A stretch of DNA of 64,000 bases from Eledone cirrhosa. Taxonomy: Eukaryota. Position 1 is the stretch's first letter. Each line of letters starts with the position of its first letter. A program made the position numbers and the translations under genes. Below the pieces are notes generated by a model, which was given only the letters and a program-made list of their open reading frames with translations, did not search any database and was not told the origin of the DNA. Positions 19,783-62,099 of the stretch are shown here, in pieces. The stretch covers positions 279,186,001 through 279,250,000 of the forward strand of contig OZ024743.1 of NCBI GenBank assembly GCA_964016885.1, given 5' to 3'.

Positions 19783-19817
19783 GTTTAAAATAGAGTGGAA
19801 AAGATGGGAAAAACCAC

Positions 19818-21977: not shown

Positions 21978-22195
21978 ATTTTTTTTTTTTTGTTTAAAAT
22001 AAATATTGGGCACAAAATCCCAATAAGCGGTTATTTAACCCCGAAGTGCCAAATAACGGGCAGAAAGACCCCTCTCACGAGGAGGAGGGTGTTTTTGTCT
22101 ACAAGTTGGTTAAAGTTTTAAACAATTTACAATTGTTATAGCGGTCAAAATTTACAATACCTTACAGAGCCGAGCCTCCGTCAACCATAGCATTC

Positions 22196-22248
<53 letters not shown>

Positions 22249-22250
<2 letters not shown>

Positions 22251-23338
22251 TTGAGCAGAAGTAACGGAATCCGTGTACCAACAGGTGAGATGATAAAGGA
22301 AATTGACTCTGAAGAAGGATACAAGTATTCGGGTGTTCTGGAGGTTGATGACATCAAGAACAAAAAAATGAAGGAATTGATAAGAACTGAATACATTCGG
22401 AGAGTAAGGAGCGTATTAAAGTCACATCTAAACAGTAGGAATACCATAAGTGCTGTAAATTCCCGAGCTGTATCTATTATTAGGTACAGTGTGGGAATTC
22501 TGAGATGGAATGTTGCTGAACAAAAAGAAATGGATAGGAAGACTAGGAAGCTATTGACTATCTACAACATGTTCCACAAGAGGAGTGATGTCGATAGACT
22601 CTACTTAATGACATCTGAAGGTGGAAGAGGTCTTATCAGTATAGAGGACCGTGTTCAGATGGAGAAAAACAACCTACACAAATACGTGACTGATAGTAAG
22701 GAGCCAATGCTCAGAACTGTACTGAAGGAGGAGACAATAGACCAGGGGATGTCCAAGGAAGAAATAACATCAAGGAGATAGAGCAGCCTTCAGGAAAAAT
22801 CCCTTCATAGTACCTTCTTTGAGAAAACTGAATTCAGAAATCCACAGACATGGAACTGGTTGAAAAGAGGAGACCTTAAAAAGGCTACAGAAGTAATATT
22901 AATGGCTGCGCAGGAGCAGGCCTTCAAAGTGGTTGAAACACCATATTTACAAGGAGGAGGCTAGCCCACTGTGCAGGATCTGTGGAGAGAGAGAGGAGAC
23001 TGTGGCTCACATTGTATCCGAGTGTAAACACCTAGCCCAGACTCACTATAAGGGCTGGAGACATGATGTGATGGGCAGGGTGATCCACTGGCACCTATGC
23101 AAAGTAAACAATTTACCACGTTCTTAAAGTGGGAGGTAAAAGGATTTGGAACTGCCATGAAGTCAAAGTGGTCCCGATTGACATAGGCGCACTAGGTACT
23201 ATCTCAAAAAGTTTCCAGGGATGGTTAAAGAAAATTGGCCCCGCCACGCTTTTTGGAACGCTTCAAAAGGCATGCTTGTTGGGAACAGCAAGAACCCTCC
23301 GATACGTCCTGAATATCTGAGGCTGCAGGTAGTGGCTT
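22249..23338 (+). pseudogene. 5'-truncated, internally deleted copy of LINE family A
   Basis: High identity to 14795-16111; follows (AAT)n; stops and a deletion near 23127. Confidence 0.92.
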
Positions 23339-23559
23339 CCTCACCAACAATATAAAAAGCCCCGGCACCACCACCGACATAGCCAACAACAATAACAGCC
23401 AACTACAACAAAAAGTATATTATATTATTGTAATGCACTGGGTGATTGCTGGCCTTGCGCCTGGAGTGGAGACAATTATTAATAATTTCATTCTTAAGCC
23501 ACGCAATGCTCACATTAAGGAACCACTCATGATAATAACAATTTAAAAAAAAACAACAA

Positions 23560-26500: not shown

Positions 26501-27514
26501 ACTACACATTTCAGAAGTCCCATTTACTGCTGAAATGGAAAACACAGAAAAAGCAAAGCAGGTAAAAGTAACTGCAAAGAAAGAACTGCTACAGAAACTG
26601 GCTAAGAAATGGCAAGAAAAGCCTCTGTATGGAAAATACCCAGAGCGAGCTAACAATCCTGATGTTGACAAAACCTTAACCCATCAGTGGTTGGCATCCT
26701 CTGGACTGAAATCGGAGACTGAAGGACTGATTATATCGGCACAAGATCAGTGTCTGCCAACAAAAAATTACCAAGCCAACATAATAAAAAATGGGTGCAG
26801 CCCATTATGCCGTGTATGCAAAAAACAACCAGAGACCATTGACCATATAATTTCAATGTGCAGTCCTATAGCTCCAACCGAATACATAAAAAGGCATGAC
26901 AGAGCTGCACAATACATACATTGGATAATGTGTAAGCATTTTGACCTGCCCCATCAAAAGAATTGGTGGGAGCACCAACCACCTCCCATACTTGAAAAAG
27001 ATCACATCTCAATCTTGTGGAACTTTAGCATCCAAACAGACCGACAAATAGATGCAAATAGACCTGATATAATATTGAAGGACTTTCAAAGGAGGGTATG
27101 CCTGCTAATTGATATGTCTGTTCCAATAGACAAGAATGTATCTATAAAAACATTTGAAAAATTGAGCAAGTATAAGGACCTGGAGATAGAAATTGGAAAA
27201 ATGTGGAAATTGAGAACTAAAACAATACCAGTGGTTGTAAGCGCTCTAGGAATGATACCTAAGGGGTCTAACGACTACTTATCGCAAATCCCAGGAAACC
27301 CGCGTATAGGAGAAATACAAAAGATAGTACTAATGGGAACTGCCCATATACTAAGGAAGATCCTGTCAATATAAATACATCACAAGTCTAAACACTAAGG
27401 ATGCATGTGTGAATATGTATGTTCTTTCTTGAACATGGCGGACCTTGTTGTCTCTTGAGGTCACTGGTTGTGACTTGGTGATAACTCGTATGAACATAAA
27501 GCAAGATAAATGCA
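23560..27514 (+). mobile_element. Near full-length R4/Dong-like RLE LINE (family B), decayed, with (AAT)n tail
   Basis: GC-rich 5'UTR, ORF pieces 23728-27374, tail at 27515-27540; the 5' boundary is approximate. Confidence 0.9.
23728..27374 (+). pseudogene. Family B ORF (RT, CCHC, RLE) with stops and frameshifts
   Basis: KWSREDN N-terminus, NYRPITCL, WIDYKKAFD, FQGDSLSPLLF, YMDD, YKYLG, CRVC..H..C, RHD, RPD. Confidence 0.92.
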
Positions 27515-27566: not shown

Positions 27567-27751
27567 ATAATTGTTTCTACTTTTGGCACAAGGCCACAAT
27601 AACCCAGTGCATTACTGGTACTTTATTTTATCGACTCCGTAAGGATGAAAGGCAAAGTTAACCTCGGTGGGATTTGAACTCAGAATGGCAAGGGCCGTAA
27701 CTCTATGCGTCAAAGCATGTTGTCTGACCCTCTACCGATACTGCCAATCCA
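27567..27751 (-). mobile_element. ~185-bp tRNA-type SINE
   Basis: Head TGGATTGGCAGTATCGG, B-box-like GAGTTCAAATCC, tail TAGAAACAATTAT. Confidence 0.85.
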
Positions 27752-27972
27752 CCTAATTATAATAAACATAATAACAACCTATATCTTTATAACCAAAATC
27801 CTATCCCCAACTAATATCTCCATTATCAACCTTAATAGTATCACTATCACTAATCCCGCTAGTATCAATATTGTGGATATCAATATCACCACGGTTGCCA
27901 CATACACCATGGCCAGCATCACGTACAACATTCCTACAATAGCAGCAAATAATATTCGCACTTAGAAACTAC

Positions 27973-28158
27973 TGGATTGGCAGTATCGCTAGAGAGTCAG
28001 ACGCCATGCTTTGACGCATAGAGTTACGGCCCTTGCCATTTTTAGTTCAAATCCCGCCGAGGTTAACTTTGCCTTTCATCCTTACGGAGTCGATAAAATA
28101 AAGTACCAGTAATGCACTGGGTAATTGCTGGCCTTGTGCCTAAAGTAGAAACAATTAT
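27973..28158 (+). mobile_element. ~185-bp tRNA-type SINE
   Basis: Inverted homolog of 27567-27751. Confidence 0.85.
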
Positions 28159-28630: not shown

Positions 28631-29157
28631 CATGCTTTCCAGCATAGTTACGTCCCTTTACGGTCTGAGTTCAAATCCCGCCGAGGTTCACTTTGCCTTT
28701 CATCCTTACGGGGTCGATAAAATAAAGTACCAGTAATGTACTGGATATTTGCTGGCCTTGTGCCTAAAGTAGAAACAATTATTAATTGGCAGTATCGGTA
28801 GAGGGTTGGACGCCATGTTTTCTAGCATAGTTACGTCCCTTTACAGTCTGAGTTCAAATCCCGCCGAGGTTAACTTTGCTTATCATCCTTACGGGGTCGA
28901 TAAAATAAAGTACCAGTAATGTACTATGTATTTGCTGGCCTTGTGCCAAACGTAGAAACAATTATTATAACTATGGATTGGCAGTATCGGTGGAGCGTCA
29001 GACACCTTGCTTTGCAGCATAGAGTTATGCCCCTTTAGGTTCTGAGTTCAAATCCGAGGTTAACTTTGCCTTCATCCTTAAGGCGTGGATAAAATAAAGT
29101 ACCAGTAATACATTGGGGTGGTTGCTGACCTTGTGCCAAAAGTAGAAACAATTATCA
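28631..29157 (+). mobile_element. Three tandem SINE copies (28631-28783 partial, 28784-28968, 28974-29157)
   Basis: Repeated ...ctgagttcaaatcc...gaggttaactttgc...gataaaataaagtaccagtaat...gtagaaacaatt. Confidence 0.85.
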
Positions 29158-34044: not shown

Positions 34045-34074
<30 letters not shown>

Positions 34075-35114
34075 TAGTAATAATAATAAAATTGAAGACT
34101 AAAATCCAAAGAGGGCTCGATAAGGAAAATATATATCAAATATATAAGAACCGAAGAGCAAATATTTATTAAAATAACAGATTAAAGTTTAAGCAAAGAA
34201 TCGCTGCTTTCACCCTTAACGGGATCTTCTGAAACTAACAAAGTCAATCTGTAAACGCAGTACTGGATATTTCAAAAAACGTTGCAACCGGAGGAAGACA
34301 GGAAGACGATACTTTGGTTCATGGTGACGTTCGCTGGCAAAGAACGGGAAAAAACGAATAATACGTCATTAATAGGAGCGGTGAAAAACAATTACGCGCA
34401 AAGACAGAACCACGTTTATGGTATAAAAGAGGTCGTAGACTAATGTTCTCTAAGTGGTGCATAGATACCTTCTCTGGCAATGAACGAAAAAACGAAGATA
34501 ATAAGTCATATGTGGAGCGTGGAGAACAATAGCACGCAAAGACAAAACCACGTAAATGGTATAGCAGAAGTTGTAGACTAAAATTCTAACTAGGAGACCG
34601 AATGAATCTCCGCTACAGAGTTAAGAACAAAGTAAATAAATACAATACTGAAGTAATAGAAACAAATAAATACATACGCGCAAACAGATACGTACATACA
34701 CAAGCATACGCAAAACCTTACCATAGGTATACAAAACCACGCACATATAAATATGTGTATGTGTGTATGCGTGTGTACAAATAAATAAATAATTATATAA
34801 ACGTATATAAGTAAATAAATACGTATATAACAAGCGCACACACATACCTACAAATAAATACACGAAGGTTCGGAGACGTAAGTCAACTAAAACAAGAAGT
34901 ACACATATACACACACCCACCATACGTACGAACCTGCATACTCACGCAGACGCAAAACTCCCATATACACATAACCAAACCCTAAATACCAGAATATGTA
35001 AAAATTATACGCCGTAACAGTCAAATATACGTACGAGAAGGTACGTTAGTTTCAGAAGATCCCGTTAAGGGTGAAAGCAGTGATTCTTTGCTTAAACTTT
35101 AATCTGTTATTTTA

Positions 35115-35869: not shown

Positions 35870-36236
35870 CACACATACATACGCACACAGATATACACAC
35901 ACATACACATATATATGTGTATATATATACATACACATATATATACACATACATACATACATACATACATACATACATACATACATACATACATACACAT
36001 AAATATCAACATATCCATACATACACATACATAGCCATACATACATACATATACTTAACGGGATCTTCTAAAACCGAAAAAAGCAATCTGTGAACGCAGA
36101 AGTAAATATTTCGAAAAATGTTGCAACCGAAGGAAGACAGGAAGACGGTTCTTATATATTTGATATATATTTATCCTTATCGAGCCCGCTTTGGATGTTA
36201 GTCTTCAAATTTAATATTATTACTATATATATATAA

Positions 36237-36535
36237 ATATATGAATATAGACATAGAATATTCGAAAATATTCTGTATGTTTATAATAAACATTTTGAAG
36301 ACCTAATCGCTATAGAATAGAATACGTCACGTATTACAATTAGATTCTCGATAAAAGCAAGGGAAGTAATCTACGCGTTTCATTCTTGTTAGAATTCATC
36401 AGGACTACATATCCAGTGCTTTTATCGAGAATGACACAGCTAGAGACTTATAGAATACTTAGCTGTGTACAGGAACTGGTTTGAAAGAGCGGTTGCCGGT
36501 CCGGCAGAAATTAGAAATTGGAATAAATGCTCTGA
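36237..36535 (-). repeat. Inverted ~1-unit arm of the 310-bp retrozyme array
   Basis: Exact reverse complement of the array unit; complete hammerhead at 36366-36408 (-). Confidence 0.95.
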
Positions 36536-39500
36536 TGAATTCTAACAAGAATGAAACGCGTAGATTACTTCCCTTGCTTTTATCGAGAATCTAATTGTAA
36601 TACGTGACGTATTCTATTCTATAGCGATTAGGTCTTCAAAATGTTTATTATAAACATACAGAATATTTTCGAATATTCTATGTCTATATTCATATATATA
36701 TCGCTATTTCAGAGCATTTATTCCAATTTCTAATTTCTGCCGGACCGGCAACCGCTCTTTCAAACCAGTTCCTGTACACAGCTAAGTATTCTATAAGTCT
36801 CTAGCTGTGTCATTCTCGATAAAAGCACTGGATATGTAGTCCTGATGAATTCTAACAAGAATGAAACGCGTAGATTACTTCCCTTGCTTTTATCGAGAAT
36901 CTAATTGTAATACGTGACGTATTCTATTCTATAGCGATTAGGTCTTCAAAATGTTTATTATAAACATACAGAATATTTTCGAATATTCTATGTCTATATT
37001 CATATATATATCGCTATTTCAGAGCATTTATTCCAATTTCTAATTTCTGCCGGACCGGCAACCGCTCTTTCAAACCAGTTCCTGTACACAGCTAAGTATT
37101 CTATAAGTCTCTAGCTGTGTCATTCTCGATAAAAGCACTGGATATGTAGTCCTGATGAATTCTAACAAGAATGAAACGCGTAGATTACTTCCCTTGCTTT
37201 TATCGAGAATCTAATTGTAATACGTGACGTATTCTATTCTATAGCGATTAGGTCTTCAAAATGTTTATTATAAACATACAGAATATTTTCGAATATTCTA
37301 TGTCTATATTCATATATATATCGCTATTTCAGAGCATTTATTCCAATTTCTAATTTCTGCCGGACCGGCAACCGCTCTTTCAAACCAGTTCCTGTACACA
37401 GCTAAGTATTCTATAAGTCTCTAGCTGTGTCATTCTCGATAAAAGCACTGGATATGTAGTCCTGATGAATTCTAACAAGAATGAAACGCGTAGATTACTT
37501 CCCTTGCTTTTATCGAGAATCTAATTGTAATACGTGACGTATTCTATTCTATAGCGATTAGGTCTTCAAAATGTTTATTATAAACATACAGAATATTTTC
37601 GAATATTCTATGTCTATATTCATATATATATCGCTATTTCAGAGCATTTATTCCAATTTCTAATTTCTGCCGGACCGGCAACCGCTCTTTCAAACCAGTT
37701 CCTGTACACAGCTAAGTATTCTATAAGTCTCTAGCTGTGTCATTCTCGATAAAAGCACTGGATATGTAGTCCTGATGAATTCTAACAAGAATGAAACGCG
37801 TAGATTACTTCCCTTGCTTTTATCGAGAATCTAATTGTAATACGTGACGTATTCTATTCTATAGCGATTAGGTCTTCAAAATGTTTATTATAAACATACA
37901 GAATATTTTCGAATATTCTATGTCTATATTCATATATATATCGCTATTTCAGAGCATTTATTCCAATTTCTAATTTCTGCCGGACCGGCAACCGCTCTTT
38001 CAAACCAGTTCCTGTACACAGCTAAGTATTCTATAAGTCTCTAGCTGTGTCATTCTCGATAAAAGCACTGGATATGTAGTCCTGATGAATTCTAACAAGA
38101 ATGAAACGCGTAGATTACTTCCCTTGCTTTTATCGAGAATCTAATTGTAATACGTGACGTATTCTATTCTATAGCGATTAGGTCTTCAAAATGTTTATTA
38201 TAAACATACAGAATATTTTCGAATATTCTATGTCTATATTCATATATATATCGCTATTTCAGAGCATTTATTCCAATTTCTAATTTCTGCCGGACCGGCA
38301 ACCGCTCTTTCAAACCAGTTCCTGTACACAGCTAAGTATTCTATAAGTCTCTAGCTGTGTCATTCTCGATAAAAGCACTGGATATGTAGTCCTGATGAAT
38401 TCTAACAAGAATGAAACGCGTAGATTACTTCCCTTGCTTTTATCGAGAATCTAATTGTAATACGTGACGTATTCTATTCTATAGCGATTAGGTCTTCAAA
38501 ATGTTTATTATAAACATACAGAATATTTTCGAATATTCTATGTCTATATTCATATATATATCGCTATTTCAGAGCATTTATTCCAATTTCTAATTTCTGC
38601 CGGACCGGCAACCGCTCTTTCAAACCAGTTCCTGTACACAGCTAAGTATTCTATAAGTCTCTAGCTGTGTCATTCTCGATAAAAGCACTGGATATGTAGT
38701 CCTGATGAATTCTAACAAGAATGAAACGCGTAGATTACTTCCCTTGCTTTTATCGAGAATCTAATTGTAATACGTGACGTATTCTATTCTATAGCGATTA
38801 GGTCTTCAAAATGTTTATTATAAACATACAGAATATTTTCGAATATTCTATGTCTATATTCATATATATATCGCTATTTCAGAGCATTTATTCCAATTTC
38901 TAATTTCTGCCGGACCGGCAACCGCTCTTTCAAACCAGTTCCTGTACACAGCTAAGTATTCTATAAGTCTCTAGCTGTGTCATTCTCGATAAAAGCACTG
39001 GATATGTAGTCCTGATGAATTCTAACAAGAATGAAACGCGTAGATTACTTCCCTTGCTTTTATCGAGAATCTAATTGTAATACGTGACGTATTCTATTCC
39101 ATAGCGATTAGGTCTTCAAAATGTTTATTATAAACATACAGAATATTTTCGAATATTCTATGTCTATATTCATATATATATCGCTATTTCAGAGCATTTA
39201 TTCCAATTTCTAATTTCTGCCGGACCGGCAACCGCTCTTTCAAACCAGTTCCTGTACACAGCTAAGTATTCTATAAGTCTCTAGCTGTGTCATTCTCGAT
39301 AAAAGCACTGGATATGTAGTCCTGATGAATTCTAACAAGAATGAAACGCGTAGATTACTTCCCTTGCTTTTATCGAGAATCTAATTGTAATACGTGACGT
39401 ATTCTATTCTATAGCGATTAGGTCTTCAAAATGTTTATTATAAACATACAGAATATTTTCGAATATTCTATGTCTATATTCATATATATATCGCTATTTC

Positions 39501-42500
39501 AGAGCATTTATTCCAATTTCTAATTTCTGCCGGACCGGCAACCGCTCTTTCAAACCAGTTCCTGTACACAGCTAAGTATTCTATAAGTCTCTAGCTGTGT
39601 CATTCTCGATAAAAGCACTGGATATGTAGTCCTGATGAATTCTAACAAGAATGAAACGCGTAGATTACTTCCCTTGCTTTTATCGAGAATCTAATTGTAA
39701 TACGTGACGTATTCTATTCTATAGCGATTAGGTCTTCAAAATGTTTATTATAAACATACAGAATATTTTCGAATATTCTATGTCTATATTCATATATATA
39801 TCGCTATTTCAGAGCATTTATTCCAATTTCTAATTTCTGCCGGACCGGCAACCGCTCTTTCAAACCAGTTCCTGTACACAGCTAAGTATTCTATAAGTCT
39901 CTAGCTGTGTCATTCTCGATAAAAGCACTGGATATGTAGTCCTGATGAATTCTAACAAGAATGAAACGCGTAGATTACTTCCCTTGCTTTTATCGAGAAT
40001 CTAATTGTAATACGTGACGTATTCTATTCTATAGCGATTAGGTCTTCAAAATGTTTATTATAAACATACAGAATATTTTCGAATATTCTATGTCTATATT
40101 CATATATATATCGCTATTTCAGAGCATTTATTCCAATTTCTAATTTCTGCCGGACCGGCAACCGCTCTTTCAAACCAGTTCCTGTACACAGCTAAGTATT
40201 CTATAAGTCTCTAGCTGTGTCATTCTCGATAAAAGCACTGGATATGTAGTCCTGATGAATTCTAACAAGAATGAAACGCGTAGATTACTTCCCTTGCTTT
40301 TATCGAGAATCTAATTGTAATACGTGACGTATTCTATTCTATAGCGATTAGGTCTTCAAAATGTTTATTATAAACATACAGAATATTTTCGAATATTCTA
40401 TGTCTATATTCATATATATATCGCTATTTCAGAGCATTTATTCCAATTTCTAATTTCTGCCGGACCGGCAACCGCTCTTTCAAACCAGTTCCTGTACACA
40501 GCTAAGTATTCTATAAGTCTCTAGCTGTGTCATTCTCGATAAAAGCACTGGATATGTAGTCCTGATGAATTCTAACAAGAATGAAACGCGTAGATTACTT
40601 CCCTTGCTTTTATCGAGAATCTAATTGTAATACGTGACGTATTCTATTCTATAGCGATTAGGTCTTCAAAATGTTTATTATAAACATACAGAATATTTTC
40701 GAATATTCTATGTCTATATTCATATATATATCGCTATTTCAGAGCATTTATTCCAATTTCTAATTTCTGCCGGACCGGCAACCGCTCTTTCAAACCAGTT
40801 CCTGTACACAGCTAAGTATTCTATAAGTCTCTAGCTGTGTCATTCTCGATAAAAGCACTGGATATGTAGTCCTGATGAATTCTAACAAGAATGAAACGCG
40901 TAGATTACTTCCCTTGCTTTTATCGAGAATCTAATTGTAATACGTGACGTATTCTATTCTATAGCGATTAGGTCTTCAAAATGTTTATTATAAACATACA
41001 GAATATTTTCGAATATTCTATGTCTATATTCATATATATATCGCTATTTCAGAGCATTTATTCCAATTTCTAATTTCTGCCGGACCGGCAACCGCTCTTT
41101 CAAACCAGTTCCTGTACACAGCTAAGTATTCTATAAGTCTCTAGCTGTGTCATTCTCGATAAAAGCACTGGATATGTAGTCCTGATGAATTCTAACAAGA
41201 ATGAAACGCGTAGATTACTTCCCTTGCTTTTATCGAGAATCTAATTGTAATACGTGACGTATTCTATTCCATAGCGATTAGGTCTTCAAAATGTTTATTA
41301 TAAACATACAGAATATTTTCGAATATTCTATGTCTATATTCATATATATATCGCTATTTCAGAGCATTTATTCCAATTTCTAATTTCTGCCGGACCGGCA
41401 ACCGCTCTTTCAAACCAGTTCCTGTACACAGCTAAGTATTCTATAAGTCTCTAGCTGTGTCATTCTCGATAAAAGCACTGGATATGTAGTCCTGATGAAT
41501 TCTAACAAGAATGAAACGCGTAGATTACTTCCCTTGCTTTTATCGAGAATCTAATTGTAATACGTGACGTATTCTATTCTATAGCGATTAGGTCTTCAAA
41601 ATGTTTATTATAAACATACAGAATATTTTCGAATATTCTATGTCTATATTCATATATATATCGCTATTTCAGAGCATTTATTCCAATTTCTAATTTCTGC
41701 CGGACCGGCAACCGCTCTTTCAAACCAGTTCCTGTACACAGCTAAGTATTCTATAAGTCTCTAGCTGTGTCATTCTCGATAAAAGCACTGGATATGTAGT
41801 CCTGATGAATTCTAACAAGAATGAAACGCGTAGATTACTTCCCTTGCTTTTATCGAGAATCTAATTGTAATACGTGACGTATTCTATTCTATAGCGATTA
41901 GGTCTTCAAAATGTTTATTATAAACATACAGAATATTTTCGAATATTCTATGTCTATATTCATATATATATCGCTATTTCAGAGCATTTATTCCAATTTC
42001 TAATTTCTGCCGGACCGGCAACCGCTCTTTCAAACCAGTTCCTGTACACAGCTAAGTATTCTATAAGTCTCTAGCTGTGTCATTCTCGATAAAAGCACTG
42101 GATATGTAGTCCTGATGAATTCTAACAAGAATGAAACGCGTAGATTACTTCCCTTGCTTTTATCGAGAATCTAATTGTAATACGTGACGTATTCTATTCT
42201 ATAGCGATTAGGTCTTCAAAATGTTTATTATAAACATACAGAATATTTTCGAATATTCTATGTCTATATTCATATATATATCGCTATTTCAGAGCATTTA
42301 TTCCAATTTCTAATTTCTGCCGGACCGGCAACCGCTCTTTCAAACCAGTTCCTGTACACAGCTAAGTATTCTATAAGTCTCTAGCTGTGTCATTCTCGAT
42401 AAAAGCACTGGATATGTAGTCCTGATGAATTCTAACAAGAATGAAACGCGTAGATTACTTCCCTTGCTTTTATCGAGAATCTAATTGTAATACGTGACGT

Positions 42501-42925
42501 ATTCTATTCTATAGCGATTAGGTCTTCAAAATGTTTATTATAAACATACAGAATATTTTCGAATATTCTATGTCTATATTCATATATATATCGCTATTTC
42601 AGAGCATTTATTCCAATTTCTAATTTCTGCCGGACCGGCAACCGCTCTTTCAAACCAGTTCCTGTACACAGCTAAGTATTCTATAAGTCTCTAGCTGTGT
42701 CATTCTCGATAAAAGCACTGGATATGTAGTCCTGATGAATTCTAACAAGAATGAAACGCGTAGATTACTTCCCTTGCTTTTATCGAGAATCTAATTGTAA
42801 TACGTGACGTATTCTATTCTATAGCGATTAGGTCTTCAAAATGTTTATTATAAACATACAGAATATTTTCGAATATTCTATGTCTATATTCATATATATA
42901 TCGCTATTTCAGAGCATTTATTCCA

Positions 42926-42927
<2 letters not shown>
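36532..42927 (+). repeat. Tandem array of 310-bp hammerhead-containing units (~20.6 copies); putative non-LTR retrozyme
   Basis: CTGATGAATTCT recurs every 310 bp from 36532 to 42732 (21 cores); units look identical apart from T>C at 39100 and 41270; ends in (TA)n. Confidence 0.95.
36836..36878 (+). ncRNA. Type I hammerhead ribozyme (representative; repeated every 310 bp)
   Basis: Stem I GTAGTC/GATTAC, core CTGATGA, stem II ATTCT-aaca-AGAAT, GAAA, minimal palindromic stem III ACGCGT, GUA cleavage after 36872; perfect 16-bp stem I extension 36812-36827/36885-36900. Confidence 0.9.
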
Positions 42928-42998
<71 letters not shown>

Positions 42999-43001
<3 letters not shown>

Positions 43002-43756
43002 GTTATTCCGGGTTGAAACGGAGGTAACCACAGTAAGTAAGGTACTCAATACATAGCAGAGTATAACAGTTTTAATATAGAAGAGATTCTACAGGACTAG
43101 AACTGTTTCATTCATAAGAAATCATCAGGAATCTGGGTCAGCATGGTTTCTTGATGATGGTTATAAGGGGCACAGAGAGTGCTAAAATGTACGTTATTCC
43201 GGGTTGAAACGGAGGTAACCACAGTAAGTAAGGTACTCAATACATAGCAGAGTATAACAGTTTTAATATAGAAGAGATTCTACAGGACTAGAACTGTTTC
43301 ATTCATAAGAAATCATCAGGAATCTGGGTCAGCATGGTTTCTTGATGATGGTTATAAGGGGCACAGAGAGTGCTAAAATGTACGTTATTCCGGGTTGAAA
43401 CGGAGGTAACCACAGTAAGTAAGGTACTCAATACATAGCAGAGTATAACAGTTTTAATATAGAAGAGATTCTACAGGACTAGAACTGTTTCATTCATAAG
43501 AAATCATCAGGAATCTGGGTCAGCATGGTTTCTTGATGATGGTTATAAGGGGCACAGAGAGTGCTAAAGTGTACGTTATTCCGGGTTGAAACGGAGGTAA
43601 CCACAGTAAGTAAGGTACTCAATACATAGCAGAGTATAACAGTTTTAATATAGAAGAGAATCTACAGGACTAGAACTGTTTCATTCATAAGAAATCATCA
43701 GGAATCTGGCTCAGCATGGTTTCTTGATGATGGTTATAAGGGGCACAGAGAGTGCT
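42999..43756 (-). repeat. Tandem array of 191-bp hammerhead-containing units (~4 copies); second putative retrozyme family
   Basis: CGTTATTCCGG at 43001, 43192, 43383, 43574; minus-strand hammerhead in each unit (first at 43084-43134). Confidence 0.93.
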
Positions 43757-43996
43757 TTCTTATGAATGAAACAGTTCTAGTCCTGTAGAATCTCTTCTAT
43801 ATTAAAACTGTTATACTCTGCTATGTATTGAGTACCTTACTTACTGTGGTTACCTCCGTTTCAACCCGGAATAACGTACATTTTAGCACTCTCTGTGCCC
43901 CTTATAACCATCATCAAGAAACCATGCTGACCCAGATTCCTGATGATTTCTTATGAATGAAACAGTTCTAGTCCTGTAGAATCTCTTCTATATTAA

Positions 43997-44000
<4 letters not shown>
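43756..44000 (+). repeat. Inverted ~1.3-unit arm of the 191-bp array
   Basis: Reverse complement of the unit; ends in (TA)n. Confidence 0.93.
43934..43984 (+). ncRNA. Type I hammerhead ribozyme of the 191-bp family
   Basis: Stem I AGATTC/GAATCT, CTGATGA, stem II T-TTC-ttat-GAA-T, GAAA, stem III ACAG-ttctagtc-CTGT, GUA cleavage after 43978. Confidence 0.85.
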
Positions 44001-44071
<71 letters not shown>

Positions 44072-44198
44072 AATATATATATATATATTTAATTATGTAA
44101 TAAATAACATGTGATAATTATTCCATTTACCAAAGGTTTTCTGAAGACAAGCGAGCTCAACAGAGAATGTCTGAACAGAATGAACATTTATGAACGTA

Positions 44199-44236
<38 letters not shown>

Positions 44237-44325
44237 TTGTTGAGTGCTCTAAATCTGCTATAACCATTTATACCCTTTTCTAAATATATATGTATATATA
44301 TTTTTTATTTATTATTTGTCGTATT

Positions 44326-45944
44326 ACACAGGGGAGAACAACAACAGCAATAGCAGCAGCAACACCAACAAGAACAACAACAGTGACAACACCAACAAGA
44401 ACACCTTCGCTGCTGTGGCAGCGGCTAAAAGGAGACCATGCTACAGCATCGACTTAACCAACAGAGAGGAAAAGTTGGCCCAGGCCTGGAAAATCATAAA
44501 TCAAGAGCAGACCTGGGCAAACTTAACTGTCCCGGCAGAAGCCATTGAGGCAGTGGAAAAAAGAACGGTGCATTTCAGATGCATCTCAGTAGAGACAAAG
44601 AGGGCAGCGATAATCGCCCAAGCTGATATAGAAGCCGCACTGAAATACATCAGAGAGGACACAGACTTCATAGAGAGGGGCAGGCAATACGGCACCGTTT
44701 CGGTGCTGTTCAAGTCTGAAGCCCTCGCTGTGAAGCATTCAATGACCCCTTGCAAAACCAGCAAGGTTATAATGTACCCCTCCCACATGGGAAAACGAAT
44801 AGCACGTGTGCGCATTCCCAGGATTCCACCAGGACTTGATATGTGGTGGCTCCTGGGTTGCGTAATCGTGGAAGGAACGGATACAGTCCCGGTAGAGGCA
44901 ACGAGAACTGCCAGGGACGACTGGTCCGGGGTTGATCTGGAGATACTGCTCCAAATCAGACCCGAAAACGTAAAAGCAATCCCGGACCACATCCGCCTCC
45001 AAAACGGGAGGGTGTTGCATATAATGACTGAGGGCAAAAGGCCGCATTGTTTCCTTTGTGGGGAAACGACACACTTTCGAGCCTTCTGCCCTCAACTGCC
45101 GAAAAGCGCAAGGGGTCGAAAGATTCCACTGCTGGCGACGCCGGGACAAGGACCACCAGCAACACCGTCAACAATGGAACCACCAAAATTGCACACCCAG
45201 GGGGGAAACGAGGAAAGCTCTCCCATTCCCCCTCCCCCCCAAAATACACACACGAACAAGAACATAAACACTCACTCAGACACAAACACGCTCACAGCCA
45301 CAGACGCCTCATCCTCCAGCAGTGAAGATGAGGGAAAACCAAAGTCCCCCAAAATACAAAAAACAAAACACAAAAGAAAAGAAATCCACAAAGCACAAAC
45401 ACCCCCACAAAAAAAAAATACACACACCACCCACACAAACATTTTCCCCACAGCATCACCAACACAACCACCAAAATCCCCCAAACGCAAACAAGCTAAA
45501 CAGACACAAGAACAAATAGACACACAAACATCAGAAACTACAGACACCCCACCCACAACAAACGCAGACACAATAGAAACAACACTAACAAAGCTATCAC
45601 CACCACAATCACACGAACAAATAAAACCCGAGCAACAAAACATTAAAAACTTCGTGCTTGCCAGAAGGGCCAACAAGGAATTGATGGCCCATGTAGCACG
45701 AAGCACAAACATCGAAAAAGACGGGGAAACATTTGAAGCGAGCACATTTCGCGTACCAGATAATTTGCTTCTGATGCGAATGTCGCTCGCTTCATACAAA
45801 GAAATTCGAAAGAGCTTTCCTCGGGATGTGGGAACCCCGAACGTAAAACCTACGTCAAGACTATTAAAGGGGTTCCCAAAAGAAACCCCACAAACCATGG
45901 AGGTCGAACCACCCGACCTTCACAAGACCCCGGAAGGTAAGTAA
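44326..45944 (+). CDS. Tx1-like ORF1 (open but missing its N-terminus), CCHC zinc knuckle
   Basis: CFLCGETTHFRAFC; the ORF-track start at 44316 lies inside the TSD and is not a real start. Confidence 0.8.
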
Positions 45945-45973
45945 ACCTTTCCTCTCCCATTCATCCTGCCAGC

Positions 45974-48900
45974 ATGGCCATAAGAGTAGGAAGTTTAAAT
46001 GTTCGTGGCCTGGGGTCGCCCTGGAAGCAAGGTCACTTGCTCAACGACCTCAGGTCACTAGGAATGGATGTAATTGCCATCAGCGAGACCAGAATTTCCG
46101 ACACACGCGCACTGGCGCCGATTTTCGACGATTATCAGATCTTTGCATCTGTTAGTCGGCCGGGAATGGGAGGTGGAGTGGCTGTGCTGTTTAGGAAATG
46201 TCTGGATCTCGAGGTAAGGTCAATCTTCCGGGATCCTGACGGAAAGTTGGTGGTCCTGGACGTGAGCAATAGCGAAGGTGGTGCCTTTAGACTGGTGGCC
46301 GTCTACGCCCCTACTGGGGCCGGTCGGCCGGACTTCTTTAGGCGCCTGGAAAACTTTCTGCTTACGTCTCGCCCTTTGCTGTTAATAGGGGATTGGAATG
46401 GCATCTTAGAAGCACGCTGGGATTGTGTGGGAGTATCTGATAGGAGCGGGGGGTGCAAAAGCCTCAAGTACCTGATCAGCCAGTTTCAACTGTCTGACAG
46501 GTACCGACTAGATTTCCCTAATGCGCCAGTATGGACCTGGACCAATCGCATAGGGTCATCTAGATCGTACATAGATAGGATTTTCATTAGGAAAAGAGAT
46601 AGAAATAGTGTAGGATGTCCACATTTTAAAACGGTTGCCTATTCAGATCACAAGCTTGTGATCTGTATGGTCGACCTAGATAAGACACGTAGGTTAGGAC
46701 CTAGCTACTGGAAGCTAAACATGTCGTTTCCGGCACGTAAAGCTTACAGGGACCGGGTCAACAACTTAGTTAAGCAAAAGTTGACAGGGGGGGTTGTCAA
46801 CAACAGGTGGTGGGGGCACTCAAAAGAGAGATTAGAGCAACCTCGATAGGATTTAGCAAAGAAGTAGCAATAGAGAAAAATAGAAAGGAGGAGGGGCTGA
46901 TAGCTAAGTTAGACGAGGCTATTTGTAGTGGCATTGCAACAGACGTGCTAGCGGCGAGAATGGCACTAGACCATTTCTTCAATGCGAAACACGAAGGTTG
47001 CATTGTCAGAGCTAAGGCGCGTGCTCTGAGGAACGAGGGAACCAAAGCTGCCCGATGGGCTCGCTTTGCAGAGACGCAGCGTGGAAATAAAACCACAATT
47101 CGGTCTTTGACGGATCGAGATGGACACGAACTGAGCGATTCCAAGCAGATGTGTGAGGCCTTTCGCCAGCACTTTGCTCGATTGTTCGGGAGGATGGGTG
47201 AGTCGGAGACGGCGGCGGACTTCAGTCCCTACCTCGACGGCTTGCCACGCCTCTCGACGGCCGACGCTGAGCGCTGCGAAGAGCCGATAACATCAGTCGA
47301 AATTCAGGACGCCCTTGTCGGCTGCTCGAGTCGCAAGTCACCCGGTCTGGATGGTCTGCCCTACGAGCTTTACGTAAATATGCCAGACTTGTTCTCCGAT
47401 CTCCTCGAAGCGCTCTACTGCAACTGGCAGCAGAACGGGAGCATTCCCAGTTCTGTGAGCCGTGGCGTAGTGACGCTGATAAGGAAAGACGAGAACAAGA
47501 GGGACACACTAGATAATTTCAGGCCCATAACCCTGCTCAACACAGAGTTTAAGATTTTGGCCAAGGTGTTAGCGAAAAGGTTGGCGCTTGTCGTCAAAGA
47601 TTTGGTTGGGGAGGCGCAAACTTGCGCAATCCCGACCAGGTCCATACACGACAACCTCCACCTCATGCGATACATCATAGAGAGGGTTGGGTGCAAACCT
47701 GGCTTCGGTGGGGCTCTGATCAATTTAGATCAATCGAAAGCATTCGATAGGGTCGACCATCGGTACTTGGAGGCTGTCCTCGAGGCGGCTGGCTTCGGCC
47801 CCGTCTTCAGAAGCTGGATCGCTGCAATGTACAGCGGCATCCGCTCGGTGGTCAAAGTTAATGGCCACCTCTCGGAACCGTTTCAGATCTCTCGATCGGT
47901 CCGTCAAGGGTGCCCTCTCTCCTCACTTCTGTACGTATTGACTCTTGAGCCTCTACTGCGGAAGCTGGAGTTGTTGCAGGGCATCCCGCTCGAACCGGGA
48001 CGTAGAAAGGCTGCGTCCGCTTATGCGGACGACATCACCGTGATGGTGTCGGAGACCTCGGAAATCGAGGTGATCCGCACCCATTTGGAGGAATATGAAA
48101 GGTTGACGGGAGCAAAACTTAACCCGGAAAAGTCGGTGGGCTTGCAGCTCGGCACCTGGAGAGGCAAGTCCATGCCGTCCAACAGCGTCGTTGGGCGCTG
48201 GACAGACGGACCGGTAAAGTTGCTCGGGGTTTGGTTCGGACCAGACCTCCAGGTGGATAAGAATTGGGACGAGGTGACGAGCAGGATAGCCAACCTCACC
48301 CAGAAATGGGCTGAGAGAAAGCTATCACTGAAAGGGCGGGCGGAGGTGGCGAACGCGTACATCGCGTCCGTCATCTACTACCGCCTGACCGTCGTGCCTT
48401 GCCCCCGTCCACGCCTCGCCAATTTGGAACGGCTCCTTTTCAAATTTTTGTGGAGGGGACGGGTCCCGTTGGTGAGGCGGTCCATCTGCTGCCAGCACCC
48501 TCTTCGTGGAGGGCTGGGCATGCCGTGGCTAATGATGCGCAGACATGCGCTGAGGCTGCGACATCTCCAGATATTTTGCCTAAACGGTGAACAGGTGTGG
48601 TCGCCGTTTGTTAGACGGGCCTTTCCGCAGCTCATCTCTTTGACTGAGCTGCAGTCCTGGGTCAAGAAGAGACCGAGACTGGGCGACTGGCATCTGGAAT
48701 GTTGCCAGGCGCTCACTGCACTCTGCAGGGTGGGCAATGCGGTCAGTGGAACTTCCACTCAAGATTTCTATAGAGGATTAGTGGAGGGCAAGTGCGATGA
48801 CGTACTAGGAGAGGCTCTGGGCGTCAACGAAGTAGAACTGACCAGTATGTTCCGGAGGACTTTCGAGCCGGGGACGATGGATAACTTCCAGAAATCCCTC

Positions 48901-49392
48901 GCTTGGCAGTGCTACCGGGGGGCGCTGCCGGTTCGGGATAAACTCTACAGGCACGGAAGTGCTGTCAGACGAACCTGCCCGAGATGCGCGCAGAGCGACG
49001 AAACCGTTCTGCACGCACTCGTCCAGTGTCCGTGCATTGCTGACTTGTGGGGTTATGTCGAACAGCTATTGTCGCGTGTAGAACGGATCCGGCTATCGTC
49101 CGAGTCCATAGTGAAGATTGACCCGCCGCCTTCTTTTGGTCAGGAAGGGCAGGCAATTTTCCTCTGCCTGGTGGCAGTAGCGAAAGAGGTTGCATGGTGG
49201 ACCAGGTTGAAAGGACTGAAGACAGACACTTTTCTCTTCGGCCAATCCCTCATCAACTTCTTCAAGTTTCACTTGGAAAGGAAGGTGAGGGTGGAGAGAG
49301 AAGTGCTGCCCCCCAGTACATTTACTGAAAGGTGGGTGAATGTGGCGAGAATGGCCCGTGTGAGTGGGCCTACTCTGATCATGCGCCTGTAG
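45974..49392 (+). CDS. Tx1-like ORF2 (APE, RT, zinc finger) with one frameshift near 46810
   Basis: SLNVRGL, ISETR, GDWN, YID, SDH; RQGCPLS, AYADD, CPRC..H...C; the two ORFs join at a G-run. Confidence 0.9.
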
Positions 49393-50395: not shown

Positions 50396-51990
50396 ATGTA
50401 TATAGCAGAATCTTCTAAAAGCCAAACTTCCACGCGAAGAAAAGAATCTGCTGACCGCTGCTTGAAACGCATCGCACAATGCCGGAAAACCCTCCTCTTC
50501 AACAACGGAGTAGCCTGGGCAAAGAGTCAACCACTTCAGATCTATTTGACGTCTCCATGGGATCGTTTGACAGTGCTGACGTATGCGACTTGGTTGGCCT
50601 ATTTATTTTAGAGATATTACGTGTTAGATTCCCGTACTCCGCACGGTAATATACTTTTATGGCCTGACTTTATCGAGCCATAAAAGTGGTATAAAAAGGA
50701 TTTAACTGCTACCTTTAATGAGTTAGGACTTAGGATAAGAGCAGCTACCAGCCTCTCTAGCGTAGATTTCTTATACATTAATTTAGACCTTCGCACACAT
50801 ACCTTCAGACCCTTCTATAAACTAAACGAAAAACTAAATTACATACACAAGGGCTCATGACACCCTCCTACTGTTTTTAGAAACTTCGTAAATAATATCA
50901 GTACTAGAATCTCTAACTTCTCCTCTAATAAGGCTATCTGTGAGTGAGCGGCACCCTACTATAACACGGCGGTAGCTAACAGCAACTTCTCGCAACCAAT
51001 TACTTACTCTTCCACTAACAACAACAGCAATAAGAAAAGAAATCGTAGCAATAGACAAACTATCTGGTTCTCTCCTCCCTTCTCACTCAACGTTAAAACT
51101 AATATAGGAAAATTCTTTTCAGCCCTCTTAGATAGACACTTTCCCATAGGTCACAAATACCGCTCCATATTTAACAGACACAGAGAAAAACTAGGGTACT
51201 CGTGCGCTAAGAATATGAAGGCCCACATCACAAACAGTCCTAAGAGCGGCACCCCACCAGGATGCTTTTGCCGAAAGCCAGAAACTTGTCCCCTTCAACA
51301 GCAATAGTTTATGTAGCTGTGGTCACTTCCAACCGACCAAAGCAACCACAGGAGGTAAAATTCTATGTGGGTATGGTGGAGGGCCGATTTAAGGAACGCT
51401 TCCAGAACCATCAGTCGACTTTTTGGTACCCGGAGAAACGATCATCCACGAAACTAACGAGCCACGTATGGTCCATCAAGAACTCAGGTATAGACAACTC
51501 CATTCAATGGAAAGCCATCACTAAATCCAAGCCATACGCAAGGGGCAATCCGTCTTCTGAACTGTGTATTGAAGAAAGGATAAATAATCTAAGGAGGTTA
51601 CGCAATAGCGATTACCTAAATTCAAGATTGAAATCATCTCACGTTATCCACATGTCTGGAAACACCTCTTACATAACTACAAACTCCGGATTGAATAACA
51701 ACAACATTTTAATTTTCTAATCAACTCGAACATCCTTTCGGGACTTTCGCAGATATCTCCGTTACACCTTTCGCCCGTGGCTTTATATTGCTTGGATGAA
51801 GTCAACATTTCTGCGCATGCGCGTCCACACGGTTGTTCTTCCTGTTCCGTTTAACCATGACCAGTCCGAACTGAAGATCCGCTAAGGTGAAACAATTGTT
51901 CTCGGTATAGTGAACTAACGGTTGTGTTACTACTTCTACCAAACTTGTCCCATGGATTGAGTGCTCTACCACTACAGATATTACCTTACA
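50396..51990 (+). mobile_element. 5'-truncated Penelope-like element, Naiad-like (RT C-terminal half, GIY-YIG, 3' terminal repeat)
   Basis: CRKTLLFNNG, FDVSMGSFDSADVCDLVGLFIL, VDFL, S*HPP, IWFSPPFSLNVKTNIGK, CFCRK..CP, IVY...FYVG..E..FKERF.NH; frameshifts. Confidence 0.85.
51866..51905 (+). ncRNA. Minimal hammerhead in the PLE 3' terminal repeat
   Basis: CCGAA-CTGAAGA-TCC-gctaa-GGT-GAAA-CAATTG-TT-CTCGG; palindromic stem III; one stem I mismatch. Confidence 0.65.
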
Positions 51991-52029: not shown

Positions 52030-55000
52030 AACATAAATGAATAAATGAAGAGATATTCAAGGAACTGCAGAAAATAAACACTAATATGTCAGTACTCGTT
52101 AACAAACTAGATTCGACAAATGAGGAGACCAACCGCAAATACAATCCCTCCGAAATCAGCGATAGACTGCACAACCTATGAGAAACGATCAAAATACACT
52201 TTACGAATAACATAAACTTAATTCAAACAAACGAAGAACCATGTGGCACAGATACACTAACAACACAACATAAAAGAACCAAATTATACCACAATGGAAC
52301 ACATCAGTCAGAGACAGAAAATTCTCCTGTTGGGAGATGATTCAAAACAAATACAAAGCGGAGATTTATGAAAAATGACTTAATTCATCCCCATTAATCC
52401 TTCCCGGCAAAATACAGATTAAACGCATCCCAGATGAACCCGAGACACAAAGATGTCTTAGGGAAAGAATGACACTGGAACAAATGAAGAAAGAAATTGA
52501 ACTTCTAAAATTGAGAGGTCAGACAAATGAGGATAAAATAAAATCCATCGTCGAAGAGATCAACAAAGAAATCAACAAAAATAATCGAGGCACCAACGTA
52601 GAAAATATCTCTAAACTATGGATAGAAGATTGCAACAAGGAGGAACTGAAATCCTTCCAACGCTGGGAAAAAAACGAAACTTGTTTTCTAAATTATGGAA
52701 CCTTTCAAACAGAATACGCTTCCGACAACCCCTTCATAAAAACAAGCAAACCTAAATACCACTCATTGTTCAACCCCCCCCCCCCCATACCGAAACAAGA
52801 AGGCAACACCTTACCCTTACCTCTTAACCCAACTGCACAGCAACTAAGTGGACACCCCTGCAAGACACAAAGAAATAAGAAAACATCAACTGCAGGATGG
52901 ACATTACAGCCACTCTCCCACTAGGAGTTACCAAGGAAACCTCCATTCTTACAACCCCTCCAACCCCCACACACAACAAACCCAAACCACTCGGTATAAT
53001 CAGCAACGAAGGGCCCCTAAAACCCAACTACCACACATGATATATAAGGACACACAACCAAACACTAAATATAGGGACACCCTAATCAACCCACATCCAC
53101 GAACCCGAACCTTCAAAAACAACAGCAGGGAACAATACAACCACAGGAGACAACCCAACATCAACAACCATCACAACTACCTTAATCATTTTTTAGACCC
53201 AGTACAGCGAAAGGAGATGACACAAGACATACAGGAGCGACGAAAAGTAATAAAAGTCATACATTTAACCCCTAAAGAACTAACAACAGATCAAATCAAC
53301 ATACTCTTCAAAGGGCTGACATTTACACCGACCCCCCAACTCCCAAACTACTCCGAAATGAAGGAGGACATTACGGAATTATGTAGAAAACTAAGACTTA
53401 GCGAGGAACTACACGACAAGTACAACGAGGACGACACACTAGCTAGAATCAGAAGCAACTACACTCCGTCAAAAGGTAAGAACAAGTTCCTTGACTAATT
53501 CTGCGAACACATTACCAATTACCCATATCAACACCTACATAGACATAACCACAAGCCAAAGATGAGACATAACCACAAGCCAACCATGCAACGAAAAGGC
53601 TCAATACTACAGCCAACAGAAAATAATGAGAAACCTAAAATCTCTAACAACTCTTTACAGAGAAGGACTTACCGACAAGAAATACAACTATATCACTGAC
53701 TTTAAAAGCAAACTCAACCTTTTCTACAGTATCCCTAAGATACACAAAAACGAAAATATAAGTAAGGCATGCAATGAACCTACAGACATATTCATCAATG
53801 TCGCACAAAGACCTCAAATTTAGACTTATAATAGCAGGTCCCTTTTGTGAAATCCAGCGCCTCAGCAACTTCCTAGATATCCTGTTAAAACCATTCCTGT
53901 TAAAACCATTCCTGTTAAAACCATTAAAAGCTACATAAGGGACGACCTCGATATGCTCAACCACTTCACCAAAACACTTAATAATGAACATATCCTACTA
54001 GTGTTTTTGATGTAGTCAACCATTATTCCAATATCCCACACAACCTAGGAATAGAGGCAATCCAATTCTGGTTAAAAATTAACCCAATGAACTACCACAC
54101 CGCATCATAAAAGAATTCGTAATAGAAGGACTCAAATTTATCTTGGAGAATAACTACTTCGAATTCGATGCCAAATTCTACAGACAGAAATCCAGGACTG
54201 CCATGGGCACGAAAACGGCCTCCTCTTACGCCAACCTCGTTATGGGATACTCAGAAATCACCCTCTTCCGAAAAGTACTAGATAAATACGGAAACCCTTC
54301 TACCTCCACATAGAAAAAAACTGGAATAGATATCTGGATGATTGCTTCATCCTCTGGCATGAAAGCATAGAAAGACTTTTCGAATTTAAATAACTTCTGA
54401 ATGGACTCAACACAGACATTCAATTTACATTGGAATACAGCCACGAAAAACTTCCTTTCCTCGACATCCTTATCAAGAAAACCAACAACAAATTAGAAAC
54501 AGACAGATACTATAAACCCACAAACTCCAAACAGTATCTTCCATTCAACTCATGCCACCCTAGACACACTAAAATGAGCATTCCCTACAACCTCGCCAAA
54601 AGGATCCGCACAATTGTATCTGATAAATACACATGCTACATTCGACTAGAAGAATTAAAGAACACTTATTAGCAGAAATTACCCACCATCCCTATTCAAC
54701 AATGGATTCCAACGTGCCCTAAAACTCAACGTCTAGGAACTTAGACATCCCAAACCAAGGAATGAATCAAAACTGAAAACTCTACCATACATCTCCACAC
54801 ACAACCCCCTTAAAAATGAAGCACTCGACATCATCCTCCAGAACATACCTTTACTAAAAAGAGATCTAAGAATGAACCAAATCCTCCAAACGCAGAATAT
54901 CATAAAGAGAAAAAGTCAACCTAAATCAATAAAACACATCCTTACACAGGCCAAAGTCCAGCCGACCCCCACAATGAACCCTACAGTAAAAAAAAATGCG

Positions 55001-61865: not shown

Positions 61866-61956
<91 letters not shown>

Positions 61957-62099
61957 TAACAGATTAAACTTTAATCTGTTATTTTAATAAATATTTCCCA
62001 TAGGGTTCTTGTATATTTGATATATATTTATCCTTATCGAGCCCTCTTTGGATTTTAGTCTTCACATTCATTATTATTACTATATATATATATATATAT

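Follow-up and report, generated by a model that had tools for sequence, protein, structure and literature searches.

Two-armed hammerhead arrays in (TA)n tracts of Eledone cirrhosa: probable insertion by twin priming on one small RNA

Introduction

A 64,000-nt stretch of the genome of Eledone cirrhosa (GenBank assembly GCA_964016885.1, contig OZ024743.1, positions 279,186,001 to 279,250,000; hereafter the window) carries two tandem arrays of small hammerhead ribozyme units, one of 310 nt and one of 191 nt. Each array consists of two arms that diverge head to head and run at their 3' ends into alternating TA, and the question is how an array of this shape arises. A preliminary description of the window had both ends of a break in (TA)n prime cDNA at arbitrary points of a circular template, read through the ribozyme cleavage site and become joined by microhomology where the reverse transcriptase (RT) stalls at the ribozyme. 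Analysis of related loci makes it probable that each array is a single insertion, in which the RT/GIY-YIG complex of a Penelope-like element (PLE) would let both (TA)n 3' ends prime on one RNA, likely a small circle. Tabulation of the sampled loci bore out the inverted arms and the association with (TA)n, replaced the arbitrary priming points by two fixed ends and gave no enrichment of junctions in the hammerhead of the 310 unit.

Loci, numbering and sampling

Units are numbered from the C of CTGATGA, in the 310 unit and in the 191 unit and PLE alike. The window lies on contig C4 of the 3.0-Gb genome, and the sampled 310 loci are the first ones on contig C1 plus the window. The sample comprises 73 records, namely the window, 12 loci picked by the catalytic core, 40 picked by an arm end at unit 196 and 20 picked by an end at unit 170, the latter being those without a listed 196 partner. 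L186 was dropped as a duplicate of L128, leaving 72 loci, and extra pieces of L061 and L181 were set aside. PLE samples consist of 20 fetched copies for the open reading frame (ORF), 50 loci picked by an end at position 61, in which arm starts were scored by eye, and 19 loci picked by an end at position 130. Genome-wide counts of ends and joints are exact pattern matches with reversed patterns as controls. An assembly artefact is rejected, as 57 loci have fixed ends together with duplicated targets and joints of their own, and exact unit counts may be off.

Two fixed ends, one for each arm

The divergent arrangement described for both window arrays is correct, and it is the rule in the 310 family, where 59 of the 72 loci are minus-then-plus arm pairs and three more are interrupted by a gap or by the end of the fetched stretch. 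Every one of the 57 complete two-armed loci has one arm with its end at unit 166-170 and a second arm with its end at 185-203, this second end being 196 in 41 of them. The core-picked loci behave alike, 10 of 12 being two-armed with one end of each kind and the other two consisting of a single arm whose end is 170 or 196. Since the two kinds of end are paired in 57 of 57 loci, the priming points are fixed and complementary, and the idea of priming at arbitrary points has to be given up. Priming from both ends of the break is supported. Genome-wide, 1,041 ends of the 310 unit match position 196 followed by TA and 1,280 match position 170 followed by TA (reversed-pattern controls, 0).

The targeting of (TA)n also stands, as 50 of the 57 complete loci are bordered on the two sides mainly by alternating TA. 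Target-site duplications that contain marker bases are 12 nt long in the window and in L067, the latter a non-TA site, and are longer in L126, L182 and L116. The window copy, ATATAAATATAT, lies at 36231-36242 and 42926-42937, flanks the 310 array and had been overlooked in the preliminary description.

These insertions show the signature of the resident PLE, with its two sites, two arms and (TA)n. PLE ends number 3,691 at 61 followed by TA and 5,068 at 130 followed by TA (controls again 0). Among the 19 loci picked by the 130 end, 15 have an opposite arm ending at 54-61, three are unclear, one is single and none is 130/130. Long PLE copies such as L074 have 3 kb duplicated in both arms. An apparent 61/61 pair on C1 (L246) turned out to be a doublet nested inside a normal 130/61 insertion.

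One template for both arms

Fixed variants point to a single template per insertion. The set of such variants is equal in both arms in 43 of the 45 loci with two full-unit arms, compared with agreement in 219 of 1,980 pairs (11%) between loci, and at least 20 haplotypes occur among the 45. Fourteen variants, each known from a single sampled locus (13 loci in all), are fixed in its two arms, and variants confined to a single unit occur at 0.13 per unit. Such a pattern would be expected if the template were a circle of one monomer that had been cut out of a parental array. Among 22 fixed substitutions A>G accounts for 7 and T>C for 3, while single-unit variants comprise 6 A>G and 14 T>C, numbers too small for a call on A-to-I editing.

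Arm starts and joints

The junctions of the 310 family were measured in 52 of the 59 two-armed loci (seven were not measurable), and 38 of these are clean. Microhomology of at least 2 nt is found in 24 of the 38, compared with 18.5% by simulated chance, as anticipated by the preliminary description. Inserted letters, often derived from the unit, occur in 14 of the 52 measured joints, two of which (L122 and L188) are artefacts of a variant that halts exact extension. In L062 (joint at G000:C1:15424224-15424240) a 16-nt inverted repeat belonging to the unit itself connects the arms, which shows that the two cDNA ends annealed directly.

The 5' starts of the 310 arms are spread round the unit (Rayleigh p = 0.057), with no pile-up at the cleavage site or elsewhere. 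The hammerhead holds 13 of the 118, compared with an expected 18.7 (p = 0.17), and the CTGA joint of the window is therefore probably a matter of chance. The distance between the two starts of a locus is flat, with 6 of 59 within 15 nt and 5.9 expected. In 45 of 59 loci each arm is longer than one unit, and the 170 arm reaches further in 27 loci and the 196 arm in 30. Since either arm may reach further, neither is a fold-back copy of the other.

In the PLE family the arm starts do pile up, 26 of the 50 loci picked by the 61 end starting within -11 to +9 of the core and 18 of them within -6 to -1. The opposite arm ends at 127-131 in 18 of the 26, and the other eight are single. The pile-up lies at the 5' border of the hammerhead, on the far side of stem I and beyond structure that the RT has already crossed, which fits the 5' end of an RNA better than a stall. 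The identity of a second PLE subfamily likewise begins at this site, CCAGATT, which we take to be initiator-like. The plus arm of the 191 array, starting at 8, falls in the pile-up zone. The claim that arms are joined where the RT stalls at the ribozyme is thus unsupported for the 310 family and, for the PLE, retains the pile-up without favouring the stall.

The resident PLE and its mini-units

The PLE is abundant, and an open frame of 712 aa is present in 6 of 20 fetched copies (L138, L141, L145-L147 and L155). The frame encodes an RT followed by a C-terminal GIY-YIG domain, with YRDDG and KTYIG motifs read from the sequence. Its protein-atlas neighbours score 0.96-0.99 and carry RVT_1, GIY-YIG and HTH_animal families, and a PDB sequence search with it gave nothing useful. 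L138 contains the Hydra-clade motifs IRWRA, SSDKTKN, CNCLNKEAC and CDLCISE...N...CMH, and the element has two further traits of that clade, a hammerhead in its pseudo-long terminal repeat (pLTR) and insertion into (TA)n. As to the CCHH endonuclease motif, whose absence marks the Hydra clade, motif reading places two cysteines within the GIY-YIG core of L138 that the related window fragment 51244-51720 does not have. Placed by its motifs, the resident element is a young Hydra-type PLE with intact ORF copies, and a candidate source of the RT/GIY-YIG protein proposed for these insertions.

The 191 unit is 97-98.5% identical over 194 nt to a stretch of this PLE and contains its hammerhead, its 69-nt tail and its first three ORF codons. 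It is closed by a 3-nt microhomology, ACC (43930-43932), onto PLE sequence just 5' of the hammerhead. The joint has five genome copies, all at this locus (four in the minus arm and one in the plus arm), and no source array for it is present in this assembly. The unit thus originates from the pLTR of the PLE and is confined to one locus rather than forming a spreading family; it would represent a one-off mini-circle of the resident element. Other small units with different joints measure 211 nt (L097), 261 nt (L103), about 185 nt (L091) and 147 nt (L106). The last (L106/L107, G000:C3:311081600-311082000) is two-armed and PLE-derived and lacks a CUGAUGA core, and its joint is confined to the L106 locus, where it occurs in both arms.

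The 310-nt retrozyme family

Both units fold on paper as type I hammerheads, with a stem I of 6 bp, CUGAUGA, stem II, GAAA and stem III, and the predicted GUA cleavage follows unit 31 in the 310 unit and unit 39 in the 191 unit. The 310 hammerhead spans 49 nt and has in each unit a palindromic minimal stem III (ACGCGT) with a 2-nt loop III, a trait of dimer-active ribozymes (PMC4209133). Against Rfam the 310 unit gave only a sub-threshold HH9 match (23 bits, with 52 needed) at 21 places, and the 191 unit gave no hammerhead match. Rfam microRNA matches are simple-repeat noise.

As in other retrozymes that lack long terminal repeats (non-LTR retrozymes), the unit is tandem, non-coding and within 150-450 nt, carries a type I hammerhead in each copy and is dispersed as retrotransposon-like insertions with target-site duplications of over 4 bp. 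One variant of its core has 3,959 exact matches in the genome. Judged by sequence, the 310 unit is an established hammerhead retrozyme with more than 1,000 insertions. A parent PLE was sought among the fetched loci, where the unit has no link to any PLE fragment and is linked only to a family of about 335 nt.

This related, retrozyme-like family is about 68% identical to the 310 unit and has the core variant TTGATAA. It occurs in the window at 62092-62486 on the minus strand and at L150:775-1601, L202:988-1432, L166:8818-9320 and L074:528-1052, and it conserves the motifs round both priming sites (CATATATATATCGCTATTTCAGAGCA and CCGGCAACCGCTCT). Its copies are two-armed in L150, L202 and L166, and the window copy is single-armed.

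Words of the 310 unit also occur in public sequencing runs. At least half of them (query window 36842-37461) were found in 20 runs with 17 organism labels from 16 studies, for which related hosts, library carry-over and horizontal spread all fit. In two of four runs the unit forms one unbranched cyclic contig of 340 nt with 0-1 differences, which fits an RNA circle and tandem DNA alike.

The arrays and their surroundings

The features of the two window arrays are collected in Table 1. All units of the 310 right arm are identical except for T89C in two of them, and its 3' end is the downstream priming site, unit 196. The 191 left arm has three substitutions, all in the junction-side unit. A single (TA)n tract is common to both insertions. 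The junction features named in the preliminary description are all present: the CTGA overlap of the 310 arms is the start of the catalytic core, the 191 joint base is the first base past CTGATGA at the base of stem II, the four outer ends enter (TA)n through a short T, AT or TA match, and the left 310 arm terminates in the unit's own CATATAT run. The statement that the arms are joined inside the ribozyme holds for one arm of each pair, the partners starting outside it at 178 and 137.

Table 1. Features of the 310-nt and 191-nt arrays, in window positions
Feature	Position	Strand	Basis and details
Left (TA)n target	36224..36242		Sequence; last 6 nt of the ATATAAATATAT copy common with the arm end
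310 left arm	36237..36535	-	Unit 178..310,1..166; 299 nt, exact match; 3' end at upstream site
Hammerhead of 310 left arm, one copy	core start 36402	-	Sequence
310 head-to-head joint	36532..36535		4-nt microhomology CTGA, unit 1-4 and 178-181
310 right arm	36532..42927	+	6,396 nt; 20.6 tandem units; unit 1 ... 196
(TA)n between the insertions	42926..43000		Includes right copy (42926-42937) of the 12-nt duplication
191 left arm	42999..43756	-	758 nt; unit 137 ... 130; 3' end at PLE downstream site (130)
Hammerhead cores of 191 left arm	43701, 43510, 43319, 43128	-	Sequence
191 head-to-head joint	43756		1-nt overlap, unit 8 with unit 137
191 right arm	43756..44000	+	245 nt; unit 8..191,1..61; core 43940; 3' end at PLE upstream site (61)
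PLE ORF codons 1-3 (ATG CTG ACC)	43924..43932	+	Sequence match to PLE
Right (TA)n target	44000..44088		Sequence

Short head-to-head end fragments of other TA-targeting repeat families lie at 36054-36232, 34074-34308, 61944-62089 and 44085-44205. They carry CTGAAGA or CTGATGA...GAAA motifs and are present in many fetched loci, so that PLE-type insertions have nested one after another in the (TA)n tracts of this region. Decayed pieces of a PLE RT and GIY-YIG domain, 36-38% identical to the Hydra-type ORF, occupy 50735-51720, and 52848-53498 is presumably a PLE-like N-terminal piece. Several non-LTR retrotransposons lie at 10753-27374 and 44253-49392, with frames for an RT and a C-terminal nuclease (among them 12668-16093, minus strand, 1,141 aa) and, to the right of the arrays, an element with ORF1 and an AP-endonuclease/RT. 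A repeat of about 183 nt that resembles a short interspersed nuclear element is present in about three tandem copies at 28631-29155, also at 27567-28158, and recurs in fetched loci.

A mechanism and its alternatives

The insertion would begin with a staggered cut of (TA)n on both strands that leaves 3' overhangs, a geometry drawn from the target-site duplications of 12 nt or more. One end would then prime at the upstream site (310 unit 166-170; PLE and 191 unit 54-61) and the other at the downstream site (310 unit 196-203; PLE and 191 unit 130-131), each primer presumably sliding a few bases to a T/A match at the end positions observed. Both cDNAs would head for the 5' side of the RNA, across the hammerhead cleavage site; read-through of this site, proposed already in the preliminary description, is seen in the arms. 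On a circle they may run for up to 20 or more rounds with strand displacement, and on a linear PLE transcript they would run off at the 5' end just before the hammerhead. The cDNA ends, joined as seen by 1-5 nt of microhomology or by short templated inserts, would then be filled in by repair. The protein may act as a dimer, on the strength of published work with PAc (PMC11167929), and a PLE is the presumed helper of the 310 family, whose unit has no sequence link to the Hydra-type element.

Several observations weigh against this mechanism or narrow it. In two loci, L161 and L194, both arms have a single-unit variant at the matching round. A circle of one monomer is unable to produce this, and a multimeric circle or a linear concatemer is called for; the circular template of the preliminary description remains probable. 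Variants repeated within some long arms (T89C in the window, 7 units apart, and others in L120, L121 and L164) mean that arrays also change after insertion and that arm length is not purely RT run length. Ten of the 72 loci are single-armed, most target duplications sit in pure TA, where their length is not readable, and 60 of the 73 records were chosen by one end, the sample being the first loci on contig C1. A decayed copy of the older, related 335-nt family in L074 has both ends apparently at the 170-type site. In low-stringency comparison over the fetched loci, AT-rich noise was all that related the 310 unit to the Hydra-type PLE, and the priming sites differ in spacing (26-33 nt in the 310 unit, 69-76 nt in the PLE). 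A Pfam search with the PLE ORF returned no RT or GIY-YIG match. One arm of L106 stops exactly at the joint of its unit, which has no CUGAUGA, and end-to-end jumping on linear RNA fits this as well. Finally, in four PLE doublets the 130 arm starts at 36-40, beside the cleavage site (39/40), and its partner passes through, a pattern suggestive of two RNAs or of cleavage while synthesis is under way. Both these starts and those at the border of the core would more likely reflect run-off where an RNA has its 5' end, a stall being the less likely reading.

The strongest alternative keeps two-site twin priming and changes the template to a linear one, either a concatemeric transcript of an earlier array or a short fragment re-copied by jumps from its 5' to its 3' end. 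The in-register variants of L161 and L194 and the arm stop of the core-less L106 unit speak for it, the ACC microhomology of the 191 joint suits an RT jump, and PAc used uncleaved RNA in vitro (PMC11167929). A concatemer sits poorly with the 13 of 59 loci in which all units of the two arms carry a private variant, a fraction near what a monomer excised from a parent array would transmit at 0.13 single-unit variants per unit. In-register variants are found in only two loci over 48,355 nt of arm overlap, compared with roughly 20 expected, an estimate that assumes parent arrays equally varied and variants older than transcription. With no pile-up of 310 arm starts at position 32, a seamless 31/32 joint and no source array in the assembly for the 191 joint, a linear template is unlikely. 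The two-RNA reading suggested by the four PLE doublets, in which each active site takes its own molecule from one local pool, is a good deal less likely still. It would have to produce agreement in 43 of 45 loci despite at least 20 haplotypes and 11% chance agreement, as well as locus-unique joints in both arms, and would require one expressed variant per cell.

Other explanations do without two primers or without set sites. A single target-primed cDNA might fold back and prime itself, or the inverted duplication might arise at the DNA level, with later growth and gene conversion equalising the arms. Self-priming is the published model for head-to-head PLE ends in rotifer PLEs (PMC3846280), the joints of short PLE doublets are near-palindromic, the 170 end lies inside a TA run able to anneal to the target, and arrays do change after insertion. 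Against this stand length differences in either direction, exceeding one unit in 15 and 24 loci, arm starts that are uncorrelated, and single-unit variants that are almost never mirrored between arms (3 loci). The 299-nt window arm does not contain unit 167-177 and could not have served as template for its partner, and the 196 and 61/130 ends are fixed despite a TA match of only 1-3 nt. Fold-back is thus improbable, ranking between the linear template and the two-RNA reading. The version of the preliminary description, with arbitrary priming on a circle and joining at a stalled RT, can draw on the one arm of each window pair that starts in the hammerhead, on the 7 arm starts (of 118) that lie at unit 1-9, where a post hoc count has 3.4 expected, and on the strong pile-up in the PLE family. 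It is the least probable of all, given ends fixed in 57 of 57 loci, 310 starts without hammerhead enrichment and a PLE pile-up on the far (5') side of stem I.

Twin priming on one small RNA may, more tentatively, be extended in three ways taken together: it would be the normal mode of PLE insertion, in which a paired RT/endonuclease uses one RNA, two set sites and both ends of the break; the 191 array would be a retrozyme born in one step from a PLE RNA circle without a DNA source; and any small circle with the two-site signal, ribozyme or not, could enter (TA)n. If true, normal twin priming would explain the inverted pLTRs, the one-sided tail and, on circular RNA, rolling-circle arrays that run both ways.

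Comparison with known systems

Metazoan non-LTR retrozymes share with the 310 unit their tandem, AT-rich, non-coding and dispersed units of 150-450 nt with one type I hammerhead each (PMC7229834; 10.64898/2026.07.22.740005). Circles have been proposed as templates that give tandem cDNA (Cervera and de la Pena 2020, PMC7229834), retrozymes have been linked to pLTRs by phylogeny (Li et al. 2026, 10.64898/2026.07.22.740005), and PLEs have been proposed as their helpers and origin (PMC7229834; 10.64898/2026.07.22.740005). Opposite-strand hammerhead pairs have also been noted, and circular templates proposed (PMC4209133). The accessible text of the two retrozyme studies describes no inverted arms, fixed 3' ends or (TA)n targeting (PMC7229834; 10.64898/2026.07.22.740005), and the words 'inverted' and 'microsatellite' occur 0 times in the main text of PMC7229834. 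Local array growth is ascribed to unequal crossover by Li et al. 2026 (10.64898/2026.07.22.740005), whereas in the present genome an array comes in as a two-armed insertion, and the origin of one unit can be followed base by base to its PLE.

Endonuclease-containing (EN+) PLEs insert with a head-to-head inverted, 5'-truncated copy and a tail at one end only (Arkhipova 2013, PMC3846280; Craig 2021, PMC8557442). They make target-site duplications of 8-10 bp and prefer (TA)n in the Naiad and Hydra clades, and their inversion has been ascribed to self-priming or left open, the tail being ascribed to endonuclease resolution (PMC3846280; PMC8557442). In the loci studied here tail and no-tail ends occur one each, the arms share a template, and mini-circle arms run for several rounds; the tail measures 69-76 nt, compared with 30-40 in those papers. 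Hydra-clade PLEs share with the resident element the C-terminal GIY-YIG, RW(R/K), DKT and CxCX5C linker (PMC8557442, section 11), and further the CxxC and CxH round a conserved E and N, the pLTR hammerhead and insertion into (TA)n (PMC8557442). They are under 3 kb (PMC8557442), and the unit here has 4.8-5.8 kb with a long simple-repeat 3' UTR.

The biochemical counterpart is Anolis Poseidon PAc, a PLE of a different clade, which in vitro cuts AT-rich DNA and extends both strands (Frangieh 2024, PMC11167929). Its RT starts at two adjacent internal sites that bound the tail, a dimer is predicted and the hammerhead is read through (PMC11167929). That study used linear RNA, and its accessible text makes no connection between the pair of start sites and either inverted arms or the opposite strands of a single insertion (PMC11167929).

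The process proposed here has a further relative in the twin priming that gives L1 its 5' inversions. There both target strands prime on one RNA and the inversion is joined by microhomology inside one target duplication, as a minority outcome with a variable second site and with pieces that are mostly non-overlapping parts of the RNA. In the present families two-armed insertions predominate, neither site varies and each arm repeats sequence found in the other; adjacent, non-overlapping pieces of the L1 type are approached only by a few PLE doublets that stop at 63 by the partner's site (L236).

No paper was found to say that each strand uses one site or that both arms share a template, and subscription papers (for example the 2005-2006 PLE reviews) and supplements may hold parts of it. 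Inverted PLE ends, tails and two start sites are already published, and the mode of insertion proposed here is well supported. How tandem and inverted PLE insertions arise is a named open problem (PMC8557442), and the insertion step of retrozymes has so far been hypothesised only (PMC7229834; 10.64898/2026.07.22.740005). Thousands of very young copies here unite three published pieces, namely inverted pLTRs with a one-sided tail, two RT start sites with extension of both strands, and circular templates. The genome supplies matched protein, RNA sites and target for one testable mechanism, under which a hammerhead satellite array can be inserted complete instead of being built up by unequal crossover.

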